Origin: Promethearchaeota archaeon
GTDB lineage: Archaea > Asgardarchaeota > Lokiarchaeia > Sigyniarchaeales > SOKP01
Direction of reading: 5' to 3'
DNA: 64,000 nucleotides
NCBI GenBank assembly: GCA_019058365.1
Contig: JAHPZE010000003.1
Coordinates: 160,001 to 224,000 of the forward strand
This document shows positions 6,178 through 28,857 of this stretch, one piece after another. Position 1 is the first letter of the stretch; every line of letters starts with the position of its first letter. The notes beneath the pieces are model-generated. The model was not told where the DNA came from. It saw only the letters and a list, made by a program, of their open reading frames with translations, and ran no database searches. Made by a program: the position numbers and the translations under genes.

Positions 6178-7197
6178 ATGGGTCATCGTAAGAAACACGC
6201 TCCAAGACATGGGTCGCTAGCATTTCTTCCTAGAAAGAGAGCAACGCAAATAAAAGGTCGAGTAAGACATTGGTTAGATAGCTCAGATGAGATTAATTTT
6301 CTTGGTTTTGCTGGATTTAAAGCGGGAATGACTCATATAACCTATATAGAGGATCAAAGAAATAGTCCTTATTATGGAAAAGAATTGATGAAGCCAGTAA
6401 CAGTAATTGAAGTCCCTCCATTAATCCTGATAGGGATAAGAGTCTATAATGAAGATGAATATGGTAAGTATATTGTTGGAGAGCTATATACTCATGAATT
6501 TAATAATTATTTATCTAGGAAAATAAATCTTCCAAATTTAGTTAATTATGATCCTAAAGTGTCTAAAAAAGAAATTCTAAAAGTTTTAAATGACAAAAGT
6601 GAAATTCGAGGCATTTTTCAAACGCAACCATACCACACATCATTACCCAGAAAAAAACCAGATATTATTGAAGTAAAAATTAATTCAATAAACCAATCTA
6701 AGGATGAATTTGATTTCGCTTATAAAAGTTTGGGTAAAGAAATAAGAGCACGAGACGTTTTAGCTGAGGGGGGGTTAGTAGATGTAGTTAGCATTACTAA
6801 AGGAAAAGGTTTCCAAGGTCCTGTTAAAAGATTCGGAATTAAAATTCTAACTCGCAAAAATAATAAAATAAAGAGAGCTGTTGCATGTATTGGTCCGTGG
6901 CATCCCGCTAGAGTTCTCTATACAGTTCCACGTGCTGGACAATTAGGATTTCACCAAAGAACAGAATACCATAAAAGAATTATGGTAATTGGCGAAAATG
7001 AGGAAGAAATTAACCCAAAAGGGGGTTTTATAAGATATGGGAAAATTCGAGGAGATTACATATTGATTTTAGGGTCTATTCCTGGATCTAAAAAAAGATT
7101 AATTAGATTAAGAAAAACTATCAGACCATTAAGATCTTTTGTTGTAAATACTCCTGAAATTACATTTATTAGCCGAGAGAGTCAACAAAGAAGATAA
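6178..7197 (+). CDS. rpl3: 50S ribosomal protein L3 (uL3)
   Basis: PRHGSLAFLPRKRA, GFKAGMTH, TKGKGFQGPVKRFG motifs. Confidence 0.98.
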   Translation: MGHRKKHAPRHGSLAFLPRKRATQIKGRVRHWLDSSDEINFLGFAGFKAGMTHITYIEDQRNSPYYGKELMKPVTVIEVPPLILIGIRVYNEDEYGKYIVGELYTHEFNNYLSRKINLPNLVNYDPKVSKKEILKVLNDKSEIRGIFQTQPYHTSLPRKKPDIIEVKINSINQSKDEFDFAYKSLGKEIRARDVLAEGGLVDVVSITKGKGFQGPVKRFGIKILTRKNNKIKRAVACIGPWHPARVLYTVPRAGQLGFHQRTEYHKRIMVIGENEEEINPKGGFIRYGKIRGDYILILGSIPGSKKRLIRLRKTIRPLRSFVVNTPEITFISRESQQRR

Positions 7198-7219
7198 TTT
7201 AATACAATCTGGTGATATT

Positions 7220-8008
7220 GTGGATAAAGTCAATGTTTATAATTTGGATGGCAAGAAAAAAGGGCTTATTGATAAACCAAAAATATTTGATGTAAAACCA
7301 AGAATTGATCTTATTCAGATTGTAAGTGCATCCGCTCAAAGTAAAAATAAACAGGTTCAAGGAAGAGATAAGAGAGCAGGGTTAAGAAATACTGCTGAAA
7401 GTTGGGGGACAGGACACGGGATGTCTAGAGCTCCTAGAATCCAAGGTAGTGGGTTTATTACAGCAAGGCAGGTGGGACGAGTCCCTTTTGCTAAGGGGGG
7501 GCGAAGGACACATCCAATAAAAACAGAAAAAAAGATTAAGAAAAAAATTAACAAACAGATCAATAAACAATCAATAATTTCTGCAATTTCTGCATCTGGT
7601 GAAAAAACTTGGATTCAAAAAGGGGGATTTATTATTGAAAATGTACCTGAAATCCCTTTAGTTGTCGATGATAAAATCCAAACAATAAAAAAAACCAAAA
7701 AAATTTATTCAATATTATGTAATTTGGGATTAAAAGAGGATTTAATTAAAATTAAGAAAAGCAGAAAGATTAGAGCAGGAAAAGGAAAGTCAAGAGGTCG
7801 AAAGTATAAAAAAAAGAAGGGAATTTTAATCGTAATTAAAGAGGATTATGGAATTATTAAATCCTCAAGAAATATTCCTGGAACAAGTGTTATTAGAGTG
7901 GAAAATTTATCAATTAAAACATTAACACCCGGTGGCATATCTGGTAGATTGATTCTTTGGACTCAATCTGCTTTCAATGAATTAAATAATTATGAGGTGC
8001 TAATTTAG
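7220..8008 (+). CDS. rpl4: 50S ribosomal protein L4 (uL4)
   Basis: AESWGTGHGMSRAPR, RAGKGKSRGRKY motifs; follows rpl3. Confidence 0.97.
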   Translation: MDKVNVYNLDGKKKGLIDKPKIFDVKPRIDLIQIVSASAQSKNKQVQGRDKRAGLRNTAESWGTGHGMSRAPRIQGSGFITARQVGRVPFAKGGRRTHPIKTEKKIKKKINKQINKQSIISAISASGEKTWIQKGGFIIENVPEIPLVVDDKIQTIKKTKKIYSILCNLGLKEDLIKIKKSRKIRAGKGKSRGRKYKKKKGILIVIKEDYGIIKSSRNIPGTSVIRVENLSIKTLTPGGISGRLILWTQSAFNELNNYEVLI

Positions 8009-8272
8009 ATGGAAGAATTCTATAAAATTATTAAAAGACCGTTAATTACTGAAAAAACTTTTGATTTAATCGAAAAGGAGAATAAACTGGTCTTTATAGT
8101 AAATAGACAAGCAAATAAAAATCAAATTAAAAGAGCTATTGAAAAATTACACAATGTAAAAGTAAAAAAAGTTAATACTATGATTACTCCAAAAGGAGAG
8201 AAAAAAGCTTTTATAAAGCTACACCCCGAATATTCCGCCCAAGACATTGCAATTGATTTAGGTATTTTTTAG
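8009..8272 (+). CDS. rpl23: 50S ribosomal protein L23 (uL23)
   Basis: [24 protein letters not shown] motifs. Confidence 0.97.
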
Positions 8273-9391
8273 ATAATAATTACTTTTAAATTCTTGGCAA
8301 TTAAATTTTTGTATGTCTTTTGGATTGATTATTTTAATATTTTCCACTAATTTTATTGATTTAGCTTTTATTAGTTTCTTATATCCCAATTCATTTAATA
8401 TTAGAATATAAATAATATATTTTGGATAATATTTTTTAAGGATTCTTAGAATATATTTAGAATCTATATTTTCTAATATAATAAACAAATAACTGTGTTC
8501 AATAAACATTAGGTTATCACCCAGTCTTACATATTCAATTTGATTATTTAATAGATTTTGTTCAAATTTCTTATTGATTTCTGGTAAAGACAGTGGTATA
8601 GAATTAATTTTAGGAAAAAATAGATCTAAAAAATCATTTAAAAAATAAAAGGTGTCTTTTATTTCTAATCTCCAAAGATAATTAAAAATTGTCCTAATTT
8701 TAATATCTTGTTTCTTAATTAAGTTACTTTGAAAAAAGTCATTAATGCTATTCTCAAGATTAATTGTATTTTCAACATTTTCACATTCTTCGACAAAGTA
8801 AAAGGATATTTTAATATCATCATTATTATCTGTTTTAAAATTAATAATTAAAACTCCTTTACTCCCTAAATTCTTTATTAGATTTAAGAAGTCTAATATG
8901 AATGATTTTTTTTTTTTAATAAAATCTAAATTAATAAGAAAAAAACTAAAAACCTTTGAATTATTGTCATTTGAAATTTTTATTGATTCAGATAATTTGG
9001 TGACAAAAGAATTAGAATTTATTTCTTGAGAGATATTAGATAAAAATTTGGTTTCTAAATCTTTCTCTTTTAAAAATTTAGCAGAATTATGAGTTTCAAA
9101 TATGTTTTGTTGGATAAAATTAAAGGATTTGATTATTCTTTCTCTTTTAGAATCTTCAAAGTTTAAAAATAATAATTTTTCACAATTTTTACGAGTATCT
9201 ATTTGGATAGTGTAATATTGAATTAGTCTTTTTCTTAGAAATTCATTTAAAACGGATAAAATTGATTTAGAATTTTTATAAACAAGTATAGCGAATGCAA
9301 TGATTTTATCATTTTTTCTTATACTCTTATAGTAAATAAGGTGATTTTCAATCAAATAGTTGAATAGTTTATACTTTCCCTTTTTAACCAT
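8258..9391 (-). CDS. Hypothetical protein
   Basis: 377-aa open frame, no recognised motif. Confidence 0.6.
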
Positions 9392-21615: not shown

Positions 21616-22842
21616 ATGTTTAAATTAAAAAGAAACGGATCAAAATCATATTTTAATATAAATTATGTTTCATTTGTATTTATATATTTAACCTATTCAT
21701 CTATATTTGTTTTTCTTAATAAATTTCTTCCAATTCTCTTTTTTGATGTATTAGATATTAATAGAATTATTCTTGCATTAATGCAGTTTCTTGCTTATTC
21801 CATATTATTATTACGTCCTGTTTTAGCTACAATAACAGATAACTTCAGAATTAAGGGTTATCAACGGAAATATTATATTATTCTTTCTGGATATTTATTA
21901 GCGTTATTCTACATTCTTATTGGGTTTAACTTCAATAATATTTTAATGTTTGGAGTCCTTTTATGTTTGATTTATATTTCAAGTATGATGCTAGATGTTT
22001 GTTCAAAATCCTTAGTTATTGATATTTCACCAACTAACGTAATAAAAAAAAGAAACCTCTTTTTTGTGTCTTTAGGCGAAGCTTTAGGAAATTTTTTTCC
22101 TTTCTTTTTATTCTTTCTTCTTATCAATGATGTTCATTCAATAAATTCTTGGGAAACTATGATTTACTGTAGCTTTCTTTTATTAATACCTTTATTAAGT
22201 ATTTTGCCATTTATTATTGAGAGAAGGCAATGGAATCCTCAAGTCATCGAAAAGCCCGAAAGGATTGAAATTTCTGAAGAAATTAGTCTAAATTCTAATC
22301 ATAAACCTAAATTAACATTCATTTTACTCTGCATTTTTATCTTTTTTGCATTTAGCGATGTAATTTTCGCATATCCTTTTTTTCCTTATCTAATACACAA
22401 ATTTGGACTCAATAACTTTAATATATTTAATCTCTTTTTAAGCTTTTATTTTCTCATAAGTATAGTGAGTAGTGCAATTGGTGGATTTCTTGTTAAAAAA
22501 GCAAAACCTAAAATTATTATATTCATTCTAATCCCAATAATCGGAATTATTTATTTGATGTATATAATTGTCCCTTTTACATATTTTACTATATTATATT
22601 TTTTAGGATGCTCTTTAGGGACAATTGCTAACTTTAACATTACAGTATATATTATGAAGTTTAAACAAGGAGATAAATCAGTCTATTTTCACCTTATAGC
22701 ATCCTTCAGACATCTAGCATGCTTCATTTTTATTCCATTAGGAACTCTACTTTCCAGTTTTATAATTACTGAATATCTTATTATCATTGGTGCTATATTG
22801 TTGAATATCTCAATCCTTCCTTTAATTTTTGTAAAACTCTAA
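21616..22842 (+). CDS. MFS transporter (AmpG/BT1-like), candidate RiPP exporter
   Basis: About 12 TM segments; RPVLATITDNFRIKGYQRKYY motif-A region; convergent with ycaO. Confidence 0.85.
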   Translation: MFKLKRNGSKSYFNINYVSFVFIYLTYSSIFVFLNKFLPILFFDVLDINRIILALMQFLAYSILLLRPVLATITDNFRIKGYQRKYYIILSGYLLALFYILIGFNFNNILMFGVLLCLIYISSMMLDVCSKSLVIDISPTNVIKKRNLFFVSLGEALGNFFPFFLFFLLINDVHSINSWETMIYCSFLLLIPLLSILPFIIERRQWNPQVIEKPERIEISEEISLNSNHKPKLTFILLCIFIFFAFSDVIFAYPFFPYLIHKFGLNNFNIFNLFLSFYFLISIVSSAIGGFLVKKAKPKIIIFILIPIIGIIYLMYIIVPFTYFTILYFLGCSLGTIANFNITVYIMKFKQGDKSVYFHLIASFRHLACFIFIPLGTLLSSFIITEYLIIIGAILLNISILPLIFVKL

Positions 22843-22879: not shown

Positions 22880-24649
22880 TCAACAAAAGAAATCTTGGAT
22901 CTTATGATCATAGTGATTTTTAATAACCTTGAAAAGATCCGGATATTTAGATGTAATTTTTTTCTCGATAAATTCAAGTAAACCATATCTACATGTTCGC
23001 ACATGCCTGCAATTATTACATTCTTGATGACAATTTGGAATCAATTTTTCTAGCCTTGTTAAGAGTTTTTTTGAAAAATCTTTAAATGGTTCATTTTTAA
23101 ACGTAATTGGGATCTCATTGGATTTCCTTAATTTCCAAAATTTTTTAAAGAGATCAGAATTGCCGTAAGCTAAACAAAGCAAAGAAAAAAACTCCCATGT
23201 AGATATTCGTCTTAGAGCAAGTGTATCAATTCCTAGAAATGTTGAAAGGTTATAATTTTTTATCACTACATAAATCAACGATTCAGATCTAGATAATATT
23301 TCTAAGTCAATTGATTGGATATCTCTTATATTTGTTATGAGTATTTTCTTTAGCTTAAATACTTGATCTGGCATGTATAAGAGATAATCAAGTATGCAAC
23401 ATTCGAGTTCTGGAACAAATAATCTTATTGTAGGAAAACCAAGCCAATTATAGTCTCTCATATAAATATACCAACCATTTTTTCTACAAAATTCTGTAAG
23501 ATTTTTTAGTTCAACAAGAAAATTTTTATCACTATAATCCCATTTCTTAAAACTTCCAAAATTTACAATTAGAAATTCTAATTTTTTTGAAGGATACATT
23601 TGCTGGACTTCAAATCTATATTTGAAAAAACCTTCTAATGGGAAATAGTTGTTTATTTCGGGAAAAACTTTATACAATTTTGAAATACTTAATAAATAGC
23701 GTTTAGTATATCTTAATCTAATTTTATGAAATGGAAAGACTTGTAATTTTTCGGTAAAACATCGCTCAATTGCGAAATTAATGGAAGTAGCTGCGGATAT
23801 ATGAAATTCCAGTTTATCGATCTGTTTATGGTGAAAAACTACACCGACTACAGGGATTCCTTTGTTTAAGCTCAAATCTTTTACAATAATATCAATATTC
23901 TCTTTATTAAATTTCTGTATAATTTCTTTATTATTATTTGAAATATATTCTGATGGTATTGTAGGGCATTTTATATTATCAGAAATTACTTTTATTATAG
24001 TATAAGTTTCGAAAATCTCACATAAAGCTTGCACAAAAGCTTCTTCGTATGAATTTCCCGAGGCACATCCTTTAGTTGAGGATAAGAAAATAGTATCAAG
24101 AAAAACTTCTTCATTTGTATAAACATTCTTAAATGGGAGATACATCTTATTGTATCCATCCCAATTAGGTAAGTATGGATTGTTTTTTCGTGTTTTTTTA
24201 AAAATTCTCTCATTTAATTCTTTATCTTTCTCGGATATCTCTGTATTAAATATAGGACAAATCTTTGGTTTTAATAGGTTTCGTGAAAACCACCACCCAA
24301 TTTGAATTCTTTCTATTAATTCAGCATATCCACTAGCAACACTAGCCTCTAAAGTCGTACCTTTCCCAAAGGAATTATATAGAATAAAATCATTACTAAC
24401 CTCTAAAGCATGACTGAGATTTGTACTAGTGATCCATATATCTTCGATTGAACTTGTATAAGAAGAATGCTCAACAAATTTATTTCTTTTTAAGAAAAAT
24501 TTTAATGATTTTGTTATATTCTGAATGGTTTCTTGAAATGAAACGGCTTTATAACCATTCACTTTTTCAGAATTTCTAAAACCATTAAACTTTGGATAAA
24601 AAATATGTGTTCTATCCTGTTTAAAATAGGATTTATCAATTATTGTCAT
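22880..24649 (-). CDS. ycaO: YcaO-family ATP-dependent peptide backbone-modifying enzyme with C-terminal Cys cluster
   Basis: GKGTTLEASVASGYAELIER, STKGCASGNSYEEAFVQALCEIFE, DLSLNKGIPVVGV, AIERCFTE, LGFPTIRLFVP; C-terminal CxxxCxxCxxxxxC. Confidence 0.92.
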   Translation of the reverse strand: MTIIDKSYFKQDRTHIFYPKFNGFRNSEKVNGYKAVSFQETIQNITKSLKFFLKRNKFVEHSSYTSSIEDIWITSTNLSHALEVSNDFILYNSFGKGTTLEASVASGYAELIERIQIGWWFSRNLLKPKICPIFNTEISEKDKELNERIFKKTRKNNPYLPNWDGYNKMYLPFKNVYTNEEVFLDTIFLSSTKGCASGNSYEEAFVQALCEIFETYTIIKVISDNIKCPTIPSEYISNNNKEIIQKFNKENIDIIVKDLSLNKGIPVVGVVFHHKQIDKLEFHISAATSINFAIERCFTEKLQVFPFHKIRLRYTKRYLLSISKLYKVFPEINNYFPLEGFFKYRFEVQQMYPSKKLEFLIVNFGSFKKWDYSDKNFLVELKNLTEFCRKNGWYIYMRDYNWLGFPTIRLFVPELECCILDYLLYMPDQVFKLKKILITNIRDIQSIDLEILSRSESLIYVVIKNYNLSTFLGIDTLALRRISTWEFFSLLCLAYGNSDLFKKFWKLRKSNEIPITFKNEPFKDFSKKLLTRLEKLIPNCHQECNNCRHVRTCRYGLLEFIEKKITSKYPDLFKVIKNHYDHKIQDFFC

Positions 24650-24814: not shown

Positions 24815-24840
24815 AGAAAAGAAGAAATAAAAAGAAGAAA
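24815..24840 (-). terminator. Oligo-U/pyrimidine tract after precursor ORF
   Basis: Minus strand TTTCTTCTTTTTATTTCTTCTTTTCT about 30 nt after the stop codon. Confidence 0.45.
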
Positions 24841-24869
24841 TATAGTAATTTAATTTGATAGTGATTTAC

Positions 24870-25010
24870 TTAATATGGAAATCCAGTTCTGCCATGAGGG
24901 ACTTGAAAGCGTGGGCATCCCTTACCGCCATGAGGGACTTGAAAGCGTGGGCATCCCTTACCGCCATGAGGAATCGTAAATAAATCAAATATCATCTCAT
25001 TGCTATTCAT
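24870..25010 (-). CDS. Putative multi-core RiPP precursor peptide (46 aa; not in ORF track)
   Basis: MNSNEMIFDLFTIPHGGKGCPRFQVPHGGKGCPRFQVPHGRTGFPY; co-oriented and directly upstream of ycaO; repeat period is a multiple of 3; TATA-like box upstream, U-tract downstream. Confidence 0.8.
   Translation of the reverse strand: MNSNEMIFDLFTIPHGGKGCPRFQVPHGGKGCPRFQVPHGRTGFPY
24891..24971. repeat. Perfect 36-bp tandem repeat (2.25 copies)
   Basis: GCCATGAGGGACTTGAAAGCGTGGGCATCCCTTACC at 24891 and 24927, then GCCATGAGG at 24963. Confidence 0.98.
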
Positions 25011-25224: not shown

Positions 25225-28200
25225 TTGCAGATAATGGATTTCATAAATGAATTTGAACATCTAAAAAGGCTTTCATTAGGTAAAGAGCTCGAAGATATTG
25301 ATATAATTTTTCAAAAGTATATAGATTCTATATATAACTATTTAAAGTTAGAACCTGTTCATAAAAATGTGAGAATACACCTCTTGGAAAAAGAAAATTT
25401 ATTAAAAGAAGAAAAGGAAATTAATCCCTTTGATATTGGGGTTGCTCGATTCATCCAAGACAAAATCTTACATTTAGAGATCTCTCAAAAATATACTGAA
25501 TTTTTACCGTATATCTTATTAAGAGAAGCATATTATATTTTTCTTCCGAAAAGAAGTGTATCTGTTGAGATAGCAGTAAATTCATTTATAGAAAAGGATT
25601 TACAAGATTTAGATGAGATTGGCAAGTGGCAATCAATGATTCGAGAATGCTTTATCCATGATGATTCTGTGAGTAAAATTATGACGGCTTTTGAAAAATT
25701 ACATCTGGAAGTAGCAGACTTATGTAAAATATTTTTTAATATGGTTAGGAATAATATTTCCCTAATTGATAAAGACATGGATGATTTAGTTACTCGACTT
25801 CAAGAAGAAATAATGTCTAAACTCTCAAAAATTTTCTATAACGATGAAATGGTTGAGACTTTGAGAGTCCTCATCGAAATATTTTATAGAGTTAAACAAT
25901 ACACCGCATTATTGAATTATCAGGAACATTTTAAAATCTATAAAGAAAAAAATATAATAAAGAGTGATTTGAGTTTAAGGAAATTTACATCAAATATGAA
26001 ATTAATAAGCAATAATTCTCTACTTAGCCCTAGTTATCTAACCCGGTGGAATACAATCGATGTATTTGTTTGTTTCTGTTATATGAGATTCCATCCTAAA
26101 ATAACTGTTTCTCAGATAAATAGGATTTTAAAAACCTTTCCTTTTTTTCTAGAACCCAGAACTGCTTACTCTTCTGGCTTTTGTCCAGATATTTTTGGAT
26201 TTTTCATTTTACCAAGAGTCTACTTTTTAGATTTTATAGGCATATTAAACAGAATGAAAAATAATAATTATTTGACTAAATTATCTGTTTATAGGCTTAA
26301 CTATTTCTTTAATTTTGCTAACTTAAATTTTCTTAGGAGTTTTCATAAATATGAATCTCTTATTAATCCCTTTCACAATCAATATGATATTAAATTTGAG
26401 ATAAATTATTTCTTAAACTATGGTGAAAATTTTCATCAGAAAGAATTAGATCTGCTTGATTTTTTGATTTTAGATAGAATTAGGTTCTTTTCTACAAATT
26501 CATTTGGATTTGAAAGAAGAGCTAATACTTTAACAGACCTAAAAAAAAGTATTATTGAAGAAGTTACATATCAAAGAAATCTTATTATCGATATTAAAGA
26601 ACTTGCCAAAAAAATTTCTGAAAAACCAAAAATTAAATCCAATTTTCTTAAATTTTTAGATACCAACCAAACTTATGGACTATTTTATATTAAAAATGTC
26701 TTAGATTCACTACTAACAATATTGATCTTTATTGAAATATTTTTCATAAAAAATCCGAATATTAAAAACACATTTAATTTTAAAGAATGGATTAAGAAGC
26801 ATGGATTATCTAATCTAATTGAGAGTAATCTATTTTTAAAAAAAAAATTTATAAAAACACTGATTTTTAATGACTTCGTACCGCTTTATTTTAATTCTAA
26901 AGAAAAATTCAAGGAGAAATTAAACGAATACAAGATATACAATCAATTCATAGATATATGTTTCAATCTTAAAACATTCAATTTAAAAGTCATAAAACAG
27001 ATTGTTGAAAATCCGGAAACTTTGAAAAAAGTTTATGAAAAAAAAGAGTTAAAACTAAAAGAGATATATGAAATAGTGAAACTAACAGATATTACAAGTA
27101 AAGAAGTTGAAGAAAGAATAGCAGGATTCCTTAAAAATAAACCACCCATAATAGAACCGTGGTTACTTAACACTCTTGGATATTTATATACGAATATAGA
27201 AGATTTAGTTTTTATAATTAAAAATGATGAAGAAACCTTGAAAAAACTTAATTTAATTAAAAAGTTTTTTCCCTTTTTTATAATCTTTACTTCAACAGAT
27301 TTGATCTCTAATGAGGATATAATTTTTACTGAAGTCAGTTTCCCCAACTTTCATTACCGTGATGCATATCAATTTTATTCCATATTATATAATACATTTA
27401 AGGAAAATCTACTAATCGCTAAGAGATATTTATCTAGTGGATTTACTCCTGTATTTTCTTTAAAATCCTTTTATAATTTCGAGACACGTCAATTCTTTTA
27501 TACTAAAGATTTATTTAAGCAATTCTTTCATTACATACAAAAAACTTTAGGAGAAAATTTTGAGTTTATTCCAATTAAAGATAATAAAATCTTATCAAAA
27601 TTACTCTCAAAAGAAAATAATATGTTTAATTTGGTAAAAACAATAAAAAACAGACAATCAAGAGATAAAATTGATTATAAAATTAAAAACTTAAAAAAAT
27701 TAATAGAATTTAATCTCAATCTTGATAAATCATTAAAAGATTTAGAAAAATATAAAGAAATAAAGCAAGAAACCTTTTTTAAAAAATATGTAAACTCTAT
27801 CCGATTCATTCCCTCTTTTCAACATTTTGGATTTGATCAGTTTTTTTTGTATATTTTCCCGATAGATATGAGTAAAATCGATTTAAAACTTCTATTTCTC
27901 AATAATTTTCAACAAATAAAATGTTCCTCATCAATTGATGCTCCCAATCCATTATTAATTAAATATATCATGCCTAATAACACTCCCAATGATAAATATC
28001 TCCATTGGTTGGTGAAATCAATGAAAGTAATTCAAGAATACTCTTTATTCTCTGTTAAAAAAATTTATAGTTTATTACATTTTGATTACAATCTTGCTGA
28101 AAATGGTTGGGAATATGATGCTGATAAATTTAAAAGCCACTTGGAAAATATTCTCTTTAAGTCGGGTTATGAGATTGAAATTCCTAAAGTGAGAGAATTT

Positions 28201-28857
28201 AATATTTCAAAACAATTAACCTCTTCTTATTATGATCCAAAATCTGAGGAATATGAAACTCTCACCAAAATCTATGGTCGGAAATCCTTGGATATGAAAT
28301 CTTATTTAGGAACAAGAAATTATAAAGTTGTAAACTCAATTAAAAACTTATTAAACAAAAAATTAATATTTCCATATTTATCCCTAAAGAATTTAGGATT
28401 TCAAGATAAACTTCTTATAATTCTTCCCAATATTAAATCCAAATCTAAAGACATTTTATTACAAATATTCAGTTACTTTAATTATGGTTTTATTTATGAA
28501 ATTGAAGGAGAATTTTACATTTATGGATTTGATAAGGAAGTAAAATTTGAGGAAGGATTAATGATAAAACTGTATCTTCCAAAATCCAAGTTTAGCATGT
28601 TTCATAAATTTCTTGAAGTCTTTAATTTATTATTTGAATATTTAGAAATCCCCCATTATTTATTTTTATATGATTTAGTTAACAGTAAGGAGTTAATTAA
28701 ATCGGTTTATGGAAATATTCAGTTCCTAAAACAATATAATCCTTTAAAGAATCTAAAGTGGAATAAAAAGGACAAAATTTGGTTGAATCATAAGGTATTT
28801 ACTCAGAAATTTGAACCTATATATCCAGATTTACTTTATAATAAAGAAGATAATTAG
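25225..28857 (+). CDS. Very large hypothetical protein with repeated Lrp/AsnC-like modules (start may be ATG 25234)
   Basis: 1210 aa; recurring P..xxLG-hydrophobic-strand junctions (PSFQHFGFDQFFLYI, PYLSLKNLGFQDKLLII, PWLLNTLGY). Confidence 0.55.
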   Translation: MQIMDFINEFEHLKRLSLGKELEDIDIIFQKYIDSIYNYLKLEPVHKNVRIHLLEKENLLKEEKEINPFDIGVARFIQDKILHLEISQKYTEFLPYILLREAYYIFLPKRSVSVEIAVNSFIEKDLQDLDEIGKWQSMIRECFIHDDSVSKIMTAFEKLHLEVADLCKIFFNMVRNNISLIDKDMDDLVTRLQEEIMSKLSKIFYNDEMVETLRVLIEIFYRVKQYTALLNYQEHFKIYKEKNIIKSDLSLRKFTSNMKLISNNSLLSPSYLTRWNTIDVFVCFCYMRFHPKITVSQINRILKTFPFFLEPRTAYSSGFCPDIFGFFILPRVYFLDFIGILNRMKNNNYLTKLSVYRLNYFFNFANLNFLRSFHKYESLINPFHNQYDIKFEINYFLNYGENFHQKELDLLDFLILDRIRFFSTNSFGFERRANTLTDLKKSIIEEVTYQRNLIIDIKELAKKISEKPKIKSNFLKFLDTNQTYGLFYIKNVLDSLLTILIFIEIFFIKNPNIKNTFNFKEWIKKHGLSNLIESNLFLKKKFIKTLIFNDFVPLYFNSKEKFKEKLNEYKIYNQFIDICFNLKTFNLKVIKQIVENPETLKKVYEKKELKLKEIYEIVKLTDITSKEVEERIAGFLKNKPPIIEPWLLNTLGYLYTNIEDLVFIIKNDEETLKKLNLIKKFFPFFIIFTSTDLISNEDIIFTEVSFPNFHYRDAYQFYSILYNTFKENLLIAKRYLSSGFTPVFSLKSFYNFETRQFFYTKDLFKQFFHYIQKTLGENFEFIPIKDNKILSKLLSKENNMFNLVKTIKNRQSRDKIDYKIKNLKKLIEFNLNLDKSLKDLEKYKEIKQETFFKKYVNSIRFIPSFQHFGFDQFFLYIFPIDMSKIDLKLLFLNNFQQIKCSSSIDAPNPLLIKYIMPNNTPNDKYLHWLVKSMKVIQEYSLFSVKKIYSLLHFDYNLAENGWEYDADKFKSHLENILFKSGYEIEIPKVREFNISKQLTSSYYDPKSEEYETLTKIYGRKSLDMKSYLGTRNYKVVNSIKNLLNKKLIFPYLSLKNLGFQDKLLIILPNIKSKSKDILLQIFSYFNYGFIYEIEGEFYIYGFDKEVKFEEGLMIKLYLPKSKFSMFHKFLEVFNLLFEYLEIPHYLFLYDLVNSKELIKSVYGNIQFLKQYNPLKNLKWNKKDKIWLNHKVFTQKFEPIYPDLLYNKEDN

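Follow-up and report, generated by a model that had tools for sequence, protein, structure and literature searches.

A Multi-core Peptide Gene Beside a YcaO Enzyme and a Giant Divergent Protein in a Lokiarchaeial Genome: Candidate Precursor of a Peptide Signal

In the 64,000-nucleotide stretch of a Promethearchaeota archaeon genome analyzed here (the window), a previously unannotated gene encodes a peptide of 46 residues built around three short cores, and lies between a gene for a stand-alone YcaO enzyme and one for a giant, divergently transcribed protein. We regard it as about an even chance that this peptide is a precursor carrying several copies of a signal, which YcaO would tailor and the cell would export; it would then be a polyprotein version of the single mini-genes found elsewhere in Lokiarchaeia.

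Results

The Peptide Gene

The peptide gene and its parts are as follows.

24870..25010, minus strand: multi-core peptide gene, 46 aa, from the ORF call and from orthologues in G005 (L007:8109-8249) and JGI contigs L015-L022
24972..25010, minus strand: N-terminal extension of 13 residues, of which the sister species shares 10/13 residues and 33/39 nt
24948..24971, minus strand: core 1, a Pro-x6-Pro octapeptide with 7/8 residues shared with the sister species, and with the length and ends of the leaderless mini-peptides
24936..24947, minus strand: spacer 1, four residues, in which Arg alone is conserved with the sister species
24912..24935, minus strand: core 2, a copy of core 1 with no differences
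24900..24911, minus strand: spacer 2, from the sister-species alignment
24876..24899, minus strand: core 3, here without Cys and with Arg-Thr and Phe, followed by one Tyr and the stop
24817..24842, minus strand: pyrimidine/U-rich tract 3' of the peptide stop, judged from its sequence a candidate archaeal terminator

The minus-strand ORF from 25010 to 24870 has 46 codons and the translation given in an earlier note on this DNA. That note also described a 36-bp repeat that is GC-rich relative to its flanks, and both features were borne out. Tandem Repeats Finder placed an array at 24891-24971 (period 36, 2.2 copies, 100% matches, score 162), far ahead of the next best of the 44 repeats that it reported in the window (score 69). 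Units 1 and 2 are identical at 36/36 nucleotides and core 3 matches at 18/24. The array has a GC content of 0.59 and each flank one of 0.19, a contrast that stems mainly from amino-acid composition, because the peptide is rich in Pro, Gly, and His and the excess falls at codon positions 1 and 2 (GC at positions 1/2/3 of 0.72/0.62/0.34 in the window and 0.75/0.75/0.19 in the sister species).

Homologue names suggest a host of Lokiarchaeia type (Promethearchaeota). An orthologue occupies the matching position in G005, a genome of the same genus, and in several salt-marsh contigs. The window and sister-species genes are 75% identical at the nucleotide level, with start, stop, and frame conserved. 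In the minus-strand frame the residue is unchanged in 33 of 47 codons, 5 of the 19 changed codons are synonymous, and there are no internal stops, whereas the sole antisense frame open in both species has 0/19 synonymous changes and the remaining four frames contain internal stops. This comparison indicates that the minus-strand ORF is a real gene.

When metagenome and genome collections were scanned with degenerate DNA versions of the core, only one relevant locus, L243 of the sister species, was among the matches listed. A PHGG repeat on another contig (C52) was rejected; it is the antisense strand of the N-terminal Pro-Pro-Trp-Gly repeat of a 276-aa membrane protein (G000:C52:43167-43997, plus strand). 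An ESM Atlas search with the peptide gave no usable match, and a sigma-70 promoter and terminator scan, based on a model unsuited to archaea, stayed at chance level.

Core Boundaries

The earlier note had read the precursor as a short leader followed by repeated cassettes, with an F-x-(I/V)-P-H-G recognition or cleavage motif analogous to cyanobactin cassettes. The leader and cassettes hold up, in that the N-terminal extension is conserved in the sister species and the cassettes adjoin a YcaO gene; we suggest that the extension is a leader or an export tag, a Sec signal being unlikely because it is short and acidic. A Phe does stand three residues before every PHG in the window genome. The motif, however, did not survive comparison with the sister species, which has Val at position -3 and Thr or Ala at -1 at two of its three junctions. 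Between species the octapeptide PHGGxGCP is conserved and the four-residue spacer is changed save for its Arg, so that the cores are conserved and the spacers variable, the opposite of cyanobactin cassettes. Leaderless mini-genes of the same genus (L147 and L149) start with Met-Pro-His-Gly-Gly and reach a Pro end eight residues later. Taken together, the leaderless genes and the pattern of conserved core and variable spacer suggest that the mature peptide begins with PHG, which would not be a recognition site, and that the peptidomics ions proposed earlier (GKGCPR/RTGFPY-type) are therefore probably the wrong targets. This comparison defines a Pro-x6-Pro octapeptide as the conserved unit and corrects the predicted product to octamers starting Pro-His-Gly.

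In the sister species core 3 is the same as the other cores, unlike the diverged core 3 of the window. Full 36-bp units are alike at 33-36/36 positions within a species and at 23-26/36 between species, and the three-unit form occurs in both. The description of the units as recently duplicated thus agrees with their near-identity within each species, but not with a three-unit layout in both species whose units differ this much between them. The pattern points to repeat homogenization or slippage on an older multi-unit layout, or to separate re-amplification, with homogenization fitting better than a single recent duplication. The sister species has two units (L243), three (L007, L015, L016, L020, and L021), or four (L017 and L018), counts that come from short-read assemblies of apparently one salt-marsh campaign and some of which may be artefacts. 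The earlier note had proposed a comparison of copy number in related genomes and had named frame-breaking variants as evidence against its reading; these variants all keep the frame. Contig depth in run X1, which is possibly the source sample and in which no contig spans the repeat, was 143 across the repeat and 83-87 in the flanks, which fits two identical units.

The Divergent Giant Protein

The earlier reading overlooked the association of the peptide gene with a divergent protein of some 1,200 residues.

25225..28857, plus strand: protein of about 1,207 aa, head-to-head with the peptide gene, in no Pfam family, putative receptor/regulator (the regulator below)

Homologues of this protein occur in 119 of the 135 family genomes. 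A structural model of 1,199 residues had a pLDDT of 70.5 and a pTM of 0.59. In VIA-align comparisons, model residues 6-255 aligned over about 170 positions to M1 aminopeptidases and thermolysin (Z 7-8.4, rmsd 3.3-4.8); this gluzincin-like head has no HExxH, and both zinc-binding His are absent. Beyond the head, the model matched the Lrp-like protein NirDL (Z 14.6, rmsd 5.4, 299 residues aligned) and the AsnC family (Z 6.5-8), and the ESM Atlas gave a weak AsnC-HTH match. The protein is predicted to consist of a catalytically dead gluzincin head followed by Lrp/AsnC-like wHTH and ferredoxin-fold units, and we infer that it may be a peptide-binding transcription regulator, with a putative DNA-binding role that depends on a medium-confidence model and on fold matches that are mostly middling. 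With the whole regulator as query, neither Foldseek nor a PDB sequence search returned anything significant, and no TPR protein was among the best 50 VIA rows for the regulator, which barely cover parts of the model.

Comparison of the window with G005 set the peptide and the regulator apart from their surroundings. The genes for YcaO, MFS, TFB, Trm5, and a tRNA-guanine transglycosylase-like protein are 92-99% identical, with dS of 0.06-0.14, whereas the regulator is 69% identical in amino acids with dS of 0.69, and the peptide has dS of 0.61. The first 900 residues of the regulator are 50-71% identical and the last 300 mostly 85-93%. In this single species pair, peptide and regulator thus diverge about tenfold faster than their neighbours. 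At bacterial pherotype loci peptide and receptor are exchanged as a pair, and one of the two species appears likewise to have replaced both at once, as a swapped signal-receptor allele. In Bacillus comQXP and staphylococcal agr, close relatives show hypervariability in the signal and in the receptor's N-terminal part, and conservation in the C-terminal part and the flanking genes; those receptors are membrane histidine kinases, and at the present locus, unlike there, YcaO as the processing enzyme has not followed the peptide in its divergence.

The Module Across the Family

On the far side of the YcaO gene lies a transporter gene.

21616..22842, plus strand: MFS transporter, convergent with YcaO, weak MFS_1/BT1 match; its family is the module's commonest neighbour

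Homologues of this transporter number 42 among module neighbours, 36 of them as the nearest long gene, and a representative matches PF07690 with an E value of 9e-17.

We surveyed the DNA upstream of 110 giant-protein homologues for mini-genes. Pro-ended mini-ORFs (ATG start, Gly in the last 8 residues) were divergent from the regulator at 33 of 107 loci and on its strand at 1, compared with 1.7 (maximum 5) in shuffles and 5/336 at control genes, under criteria set after the first 30 loci had been seen and across related loci that are not independent. Met-Pro mini-ORFs, at 108 loci, were divergent in 42 cases and on the same strand in 4. The excess of divergent mini-ORFs is large despite the post hoc criteria and kinship. 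A Shine-Dalgarno site is plain at many mini-genes. At about 40% of regulator loci (63 of 110 were labelled) there is no peptide by the survey criteria.

The peptides take three forms. Some are leaderless 8-10-mers; others are precursors of ~35-45 residues that resemble signal peptides and close with a short tail ending in Pro; the third form, the multi-core precursor, is limited to the window lineage and G005. Leaderless peptides most often have eight residues after Met (20/38); 12 have the form Pro-x6-Pro and 5 start with Pro-His. Both L147 and L149 peptides start with PHGG and end in Pro, and that of L149 ends Cys-Pro. Two or three separate mini-gene copies lie upstream of the regulator at L149, L140, L117, L122, L162, L079, and L103; several of these copies precede a similar short hairpin, and L149 adds a PHGG-starting copy on the opposite strand.

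Tailoring genes vary from locus to locus. L139, the same chromosomal site as the window by its neighbours (70-93% identical), has just one leaderless peptide and lacks a YcaO. At L117, L130, and L134 the YcaO slot holds a B12 radical SAM gene, and methyltransferase and ThiF genes occupy it at other loci. Most loci have a regulator and a peptide, often with an MFS gene, and no tailoring enzyme. From this gene order, the module is a regulator, a peptide, and an MFS transporter, with an optional tailoring enzyme.

In FastTree trees of the regulator, peptide type tracks the tree, as kinship alone would lead one to expect. The window regulator branches apart from those of L147 and L149, while the window MFS is 57-72% identical to those of the L147/L149 peptide group, so the locus looks mosaic, and the PHGG resemblance may reflect module shuffling or convergence.

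A second module lies on the same contig beyond the window (G000:C35:134249-139952). It comprises a regulator paralogue (41% identical), a divergent 36-codon signal-type peptide gene with a Pro end (138048-138158), and then a B12 radical SAM gene. The idea that this B12 radical SAM enzyme acts in trans on the window peptide was dropped, since the enzyme has its own peptide and regulator; no close homologue of it was found in G005.

The YcaO Enzyme

22880..24649, minus strand: stand-alone YcaO, 589 aa (PF02624, E 2e-38), beginning 220 bp past the peptide stop on the same strand

This is the genome's sole YcaO, and homologues occur in 10 of the 135 family genomes and 2 of the 54 genus genomes. 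Besides the PF02624 domain it has the YcaO fold, matching E. coli YcaO in Foldseek (E 6e-20, TM about 0.6) and in a PDB sequence search (E 9e-11). It carries every one of the residues that we take to form the ATP/Mg site of E. coli YcaO (E75, E78, N187, E199, E202, R203, R286, and E290) except Arg203, which is replaced by Thr215; Thr is present in both sister species, whereas Arg holds the position in all 13 other aligned homologues and in 52 of 53 proteins with a readable motif. The dN/dS of the gene between the window and G005 is about 0.24, similar to that of its neighbours, and this apparent purifying selection argues against decay.

The enzyme was compared with known YcaO classes. Its profile scores are 92 against a cut-off of 700 for NF040716 and 66 against a cut-off of 219 for TIGR03604. 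The TfuA partner (PF07812) was not found in the genome (100% complete), no E1/ThiF partner is adjacent (three ThiF genes sit on other contigs), the window holds no nitroreductase-family (flavin dehydrogenase) gene, and there are 0 Pro among the last 12 residues where a Pro-rich C-terminus was sought. By gene content and profiles, the locus falls outside the defining tests for azole peptides, cyanobactins, and thioamitides; TfuA-independent thioamidation is possible. E. coli YcaO is a uL16 thioamide synthetase whose clade is marked by a pI of 4.4 and no neighbouring small ORF (PMC13063428); the window enzyme has a pI of 9.1 and the peptide gene 220 bp upstream.

Pro-ended peptides also turn up close to six more YcaOs of the Loki clade (L011, L061, L062, L440, L441, and L443). 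At four of these six, a Cys falls within the last six peptide residues, compared with 8 of the 63 automatically labelled loci overall, a tally that amounts to about four related lineages. Downstream of the L443 YcaO (32% identical to the window's) is a mini-ORF whose last six residues, directly before its stop, are those that end core 1, with a rough chance of 6e-7, calculated post hoc; it starts with TTG and has no clear ribosome-binding site. At many Asgard YcaO homologues no peptide is visible nearby.

We consider it somewhat probable that the window YcaO modifies the peptide. Thiazoline formation at Gly-Cys would be the single most likely chemistry, if still a tentative assignment; amidine formation, macrocyclization, and MusD-type ATP-driven cleavage are jointly a lesser possibility, and a TfuA-independent thioamide is unlikely, as is an enzyme with weak or no catalysis.

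Discussion

Proposed Mechanism and Alternatives

In the scheme that we favour, YcaO would spend ATP on activating one backbone amide in every core, and either housekeeping peptidases or YcaO itself would cut the cores out ahead of Pro1 and behind Pro8. The MFS transporter would carry the peptide across the membrane, and the peptide would then bind the giant protein, perhaps at its inactive peptidase head, altering transcription from the shared intergenic region and so acting as a lineage-specific signal. Three cores would yield more peptide per transcript, as relatives may achieve with two or three separate mini-genes. The Arg203 to Thr change, the lack of Cys in core 3, the absence of an adjacent protease gene, and the many orphan YcaO homologues are points against this scheme. 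A broader version, on balance doubtful, is that the locus belongs to a family-wide system of peptide communication in Loki-type Asgard archaea, unrelated to RRNPP, in which a single-chain, Lrp-like dead-peptidase regulator reads Pro-ended octapeptides, and allele swaps together with plug-in tailoring enzymes bring variety into the code; the locus would then be its polyprotein form, with an atypical YcaO that both modifies the several copies in one precursor and helps to release them.

The alternatives differ mainly in what the peptide does. With module and processing unchanged, the MFS might export an effector RiPP, antimicrobial or otherwise, and the giant protein might regulate the cluster while sensing something else. 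RiPP-type tailoring enzymes (YcaO, B12 radical SAM, ThiF, and methyltransferase) beside an exporter, and amplified cores suited to bulk production, are consistent with this, and streptococcal Rgg regulators do control RaS-RiPP clusters with some inhibitory products (PMC13361665). We consider an effector unlikely because most loci lack a tailoring enzyme and because the co-divergence of peptide and regulator, in which YcaO and MFS take no part, suggests that the regulator reads the peptide. It is rather unlikely, too, that the peptide is an unmodified signal and YcaO a bystander, a degenerate enzyme, or a modifier of a cellular protein. Such a role would agree with the Arg-to-Thr change at the ATP site, the orphan homologues, the U-rich tract between the two genes, and the closest solved fold, that of E. 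coli YcaO, which thioamidates uL16 (PMC13063428). The pI and the NF040716 score, however, are far from those of uL16-modifying enzymes; non-acidic members of the E. coli group are linked to RiPP clusters (PMC13063428); and the window YcaO sits in a variable tailoring slot and is rare in the genus, with the L443 hexamer also speaking for a link to the peptide.

The remaining alternatives concern the nature of the ORF itself. That F-x-(I/V)-P-H-G is a protease recognition sequence with the cores following it, as in a cyanobactin precursor, is very improbable: repeated cassettes beside a YcaO and the Phe at -3 at all three window junctions suggested it, but the Phe is unconserved, the cores rather than the spacers are kept, the leaderless homologues start at PHG, and neither the PatA/PatG recognition sequences (PMC10885120) nor an adjacent protease of that kind is present. 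PHGG resembles the copper-binding octarepeat of prion protein. An uncut, 46-residue His/Cys metal-binding repeat peptide would suit this resemblance, the one His and one Cys of each intact unit, and the variable unit number, yet it is highly unlikely given that most homologous mini-peptides lack His and Cys and that the locus has no metal transporter. Finally, the antisense PHGG shadow on C52 demonstrates that accidental motifs occur, but the view that the ORF is a chance GC-rich duplication, or that the antisense ORF is the real one, is scarcely credible with start, stop, and frame kept at 75% nucleotide identity, synonymous changes confined to this one of the open frames, and the ORF filling the peptide position of the module.

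Comparison with Known Systems

The exported-signal reading invites comparison with Rgg/SHP and RopB/LCP of Bacillota (PMC10518010, PMC13361665), in which an 8-10-codon mini-gene with an RBS is likewise divergent from a cytosolic regulator. RRNPP/LCP systems typically have a short peptide gene that neighbours its regulator in divergent orientation, the arrangement seen here; in those systems the peptide leaves the cell, is taken up again, and alters transcription through its receptor. Together with RaS-RiPP clusters, those systems also share leaderless and precursor forms, downstream radical SAM/ThiF genes and transporters, and lineage-specific codes. They differ in that RRNPP receptors bind the peptide with a C-terminal TPR domain, whereas the present regulator is modelled as gluzincin plus Lrp/AsnC at about 1,200 aa, and in that the peptides here are Gly/Pro-rich and Pro-ended rather than hydrophobic and belong to an archaeal host. 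No homology of the locus to Rgg/SHP or RopB/LCP systems was detected.

Like cyanobactin precursors of the PatE type, the window precursor combines several cores in one short peptide adjoining a YcaO-family enzyme. Cyanobactin flanks are conserved recognition sequences (PMC10885120), whereas here the spacers vary, the YcaO is unfused to an E1-like domain, and the extension has only 13 residues; neither PatA/PatG subtilisin proteases nor an E1-fused cyclodehydratase was present among the ORFs of 14-36 kb. Streptamidine and bottromycin (PMC8442711) also pair a stand-alone YcaO with an unannotated short precursor, and their precursors carry motifs up to three times; the window YcaO, in contrast, belongs to another subfamily with a C-terminal four-Cys cluster and has no hydrolase or oxidoreductase genes alongside, and no likeness of its precursor to that family was detected. 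Among solved structures the best match in sequence and fold is E. coli YcaO (PDB 4Q84-4Q86), which is similar in length and also has no TfuA; the window enzyme differs from it in being basic, in having an adjacent small ORF, and in the Thr at the Arg203 position.

Asgard archaea are the closest prokaryotic relatives of eukaryotes. A literature search found no description of peptide signalling, or of a regulator-peptide-MFS module, in Asgard archaea, and characterized archaeal RiPP products are few (PMC12144867). The locus may belong to an undescribed archaeal peptide-signal system. New at this locus are the polyprotein form, the corrected core boundaries, a YcaO in the tailoring slot, and the apparent peptide-receptor allele swap. 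It brings together, in a compact set, an octapeptide within easy reach of chemistry, a single enzyme, a single transporter, and a single candidate receptor, with the sister-species allele as a specificity control, as well as a natural YcaO variant without the conserved ATP-site Arg.

Other YcaO Loci

Several observations were made around related YcaO genes. The four-Cys cluster at the YcaO C-terminus (window positions 22880-23050) is present in 125 of 161 subfamily proteins, many of them outside the Loki clade. The L443 mini-ORF (L443:2048-2098, plus strand) lies 10 nt 3' of its YcaO, and the next gene is Rce1-like (CAAX protease family). At L062:6137-9622 and L441:5427-8948, a signal-type peptide, a 91-99-aa helical protein, a YcaO, and a convergent S26 signal peptidase are clustered beside the same TFB gene as in the window; L441 has two S26 stretches. 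One cluster at L011:6385-15656 contains an MFS, a YcaO, a B12 radical SAM gene, two tandem signal-type peptide genes, and a giant regulator. G049 encodes three YcaO homologues (L008:4852-7485 and L010:1847-4384 and 6335-8872; 845-877 aa), each extended at the N-terminus by ~280 residues. Two of the three genes share a contig, separated by 2 kb, and no peptide was seen near the three. A YcaO in G042 (L009:7344-10129) lies right behind a 309-aa gene that by eye resembles a RimK-type ATP-grasp ligase. A non-Loki, apparently bacterial YcaO of the same subfamily (L445:4670-8131) follows a 53-aa ORF and precedes a carboxypeptidase-regulatory-domain protein.
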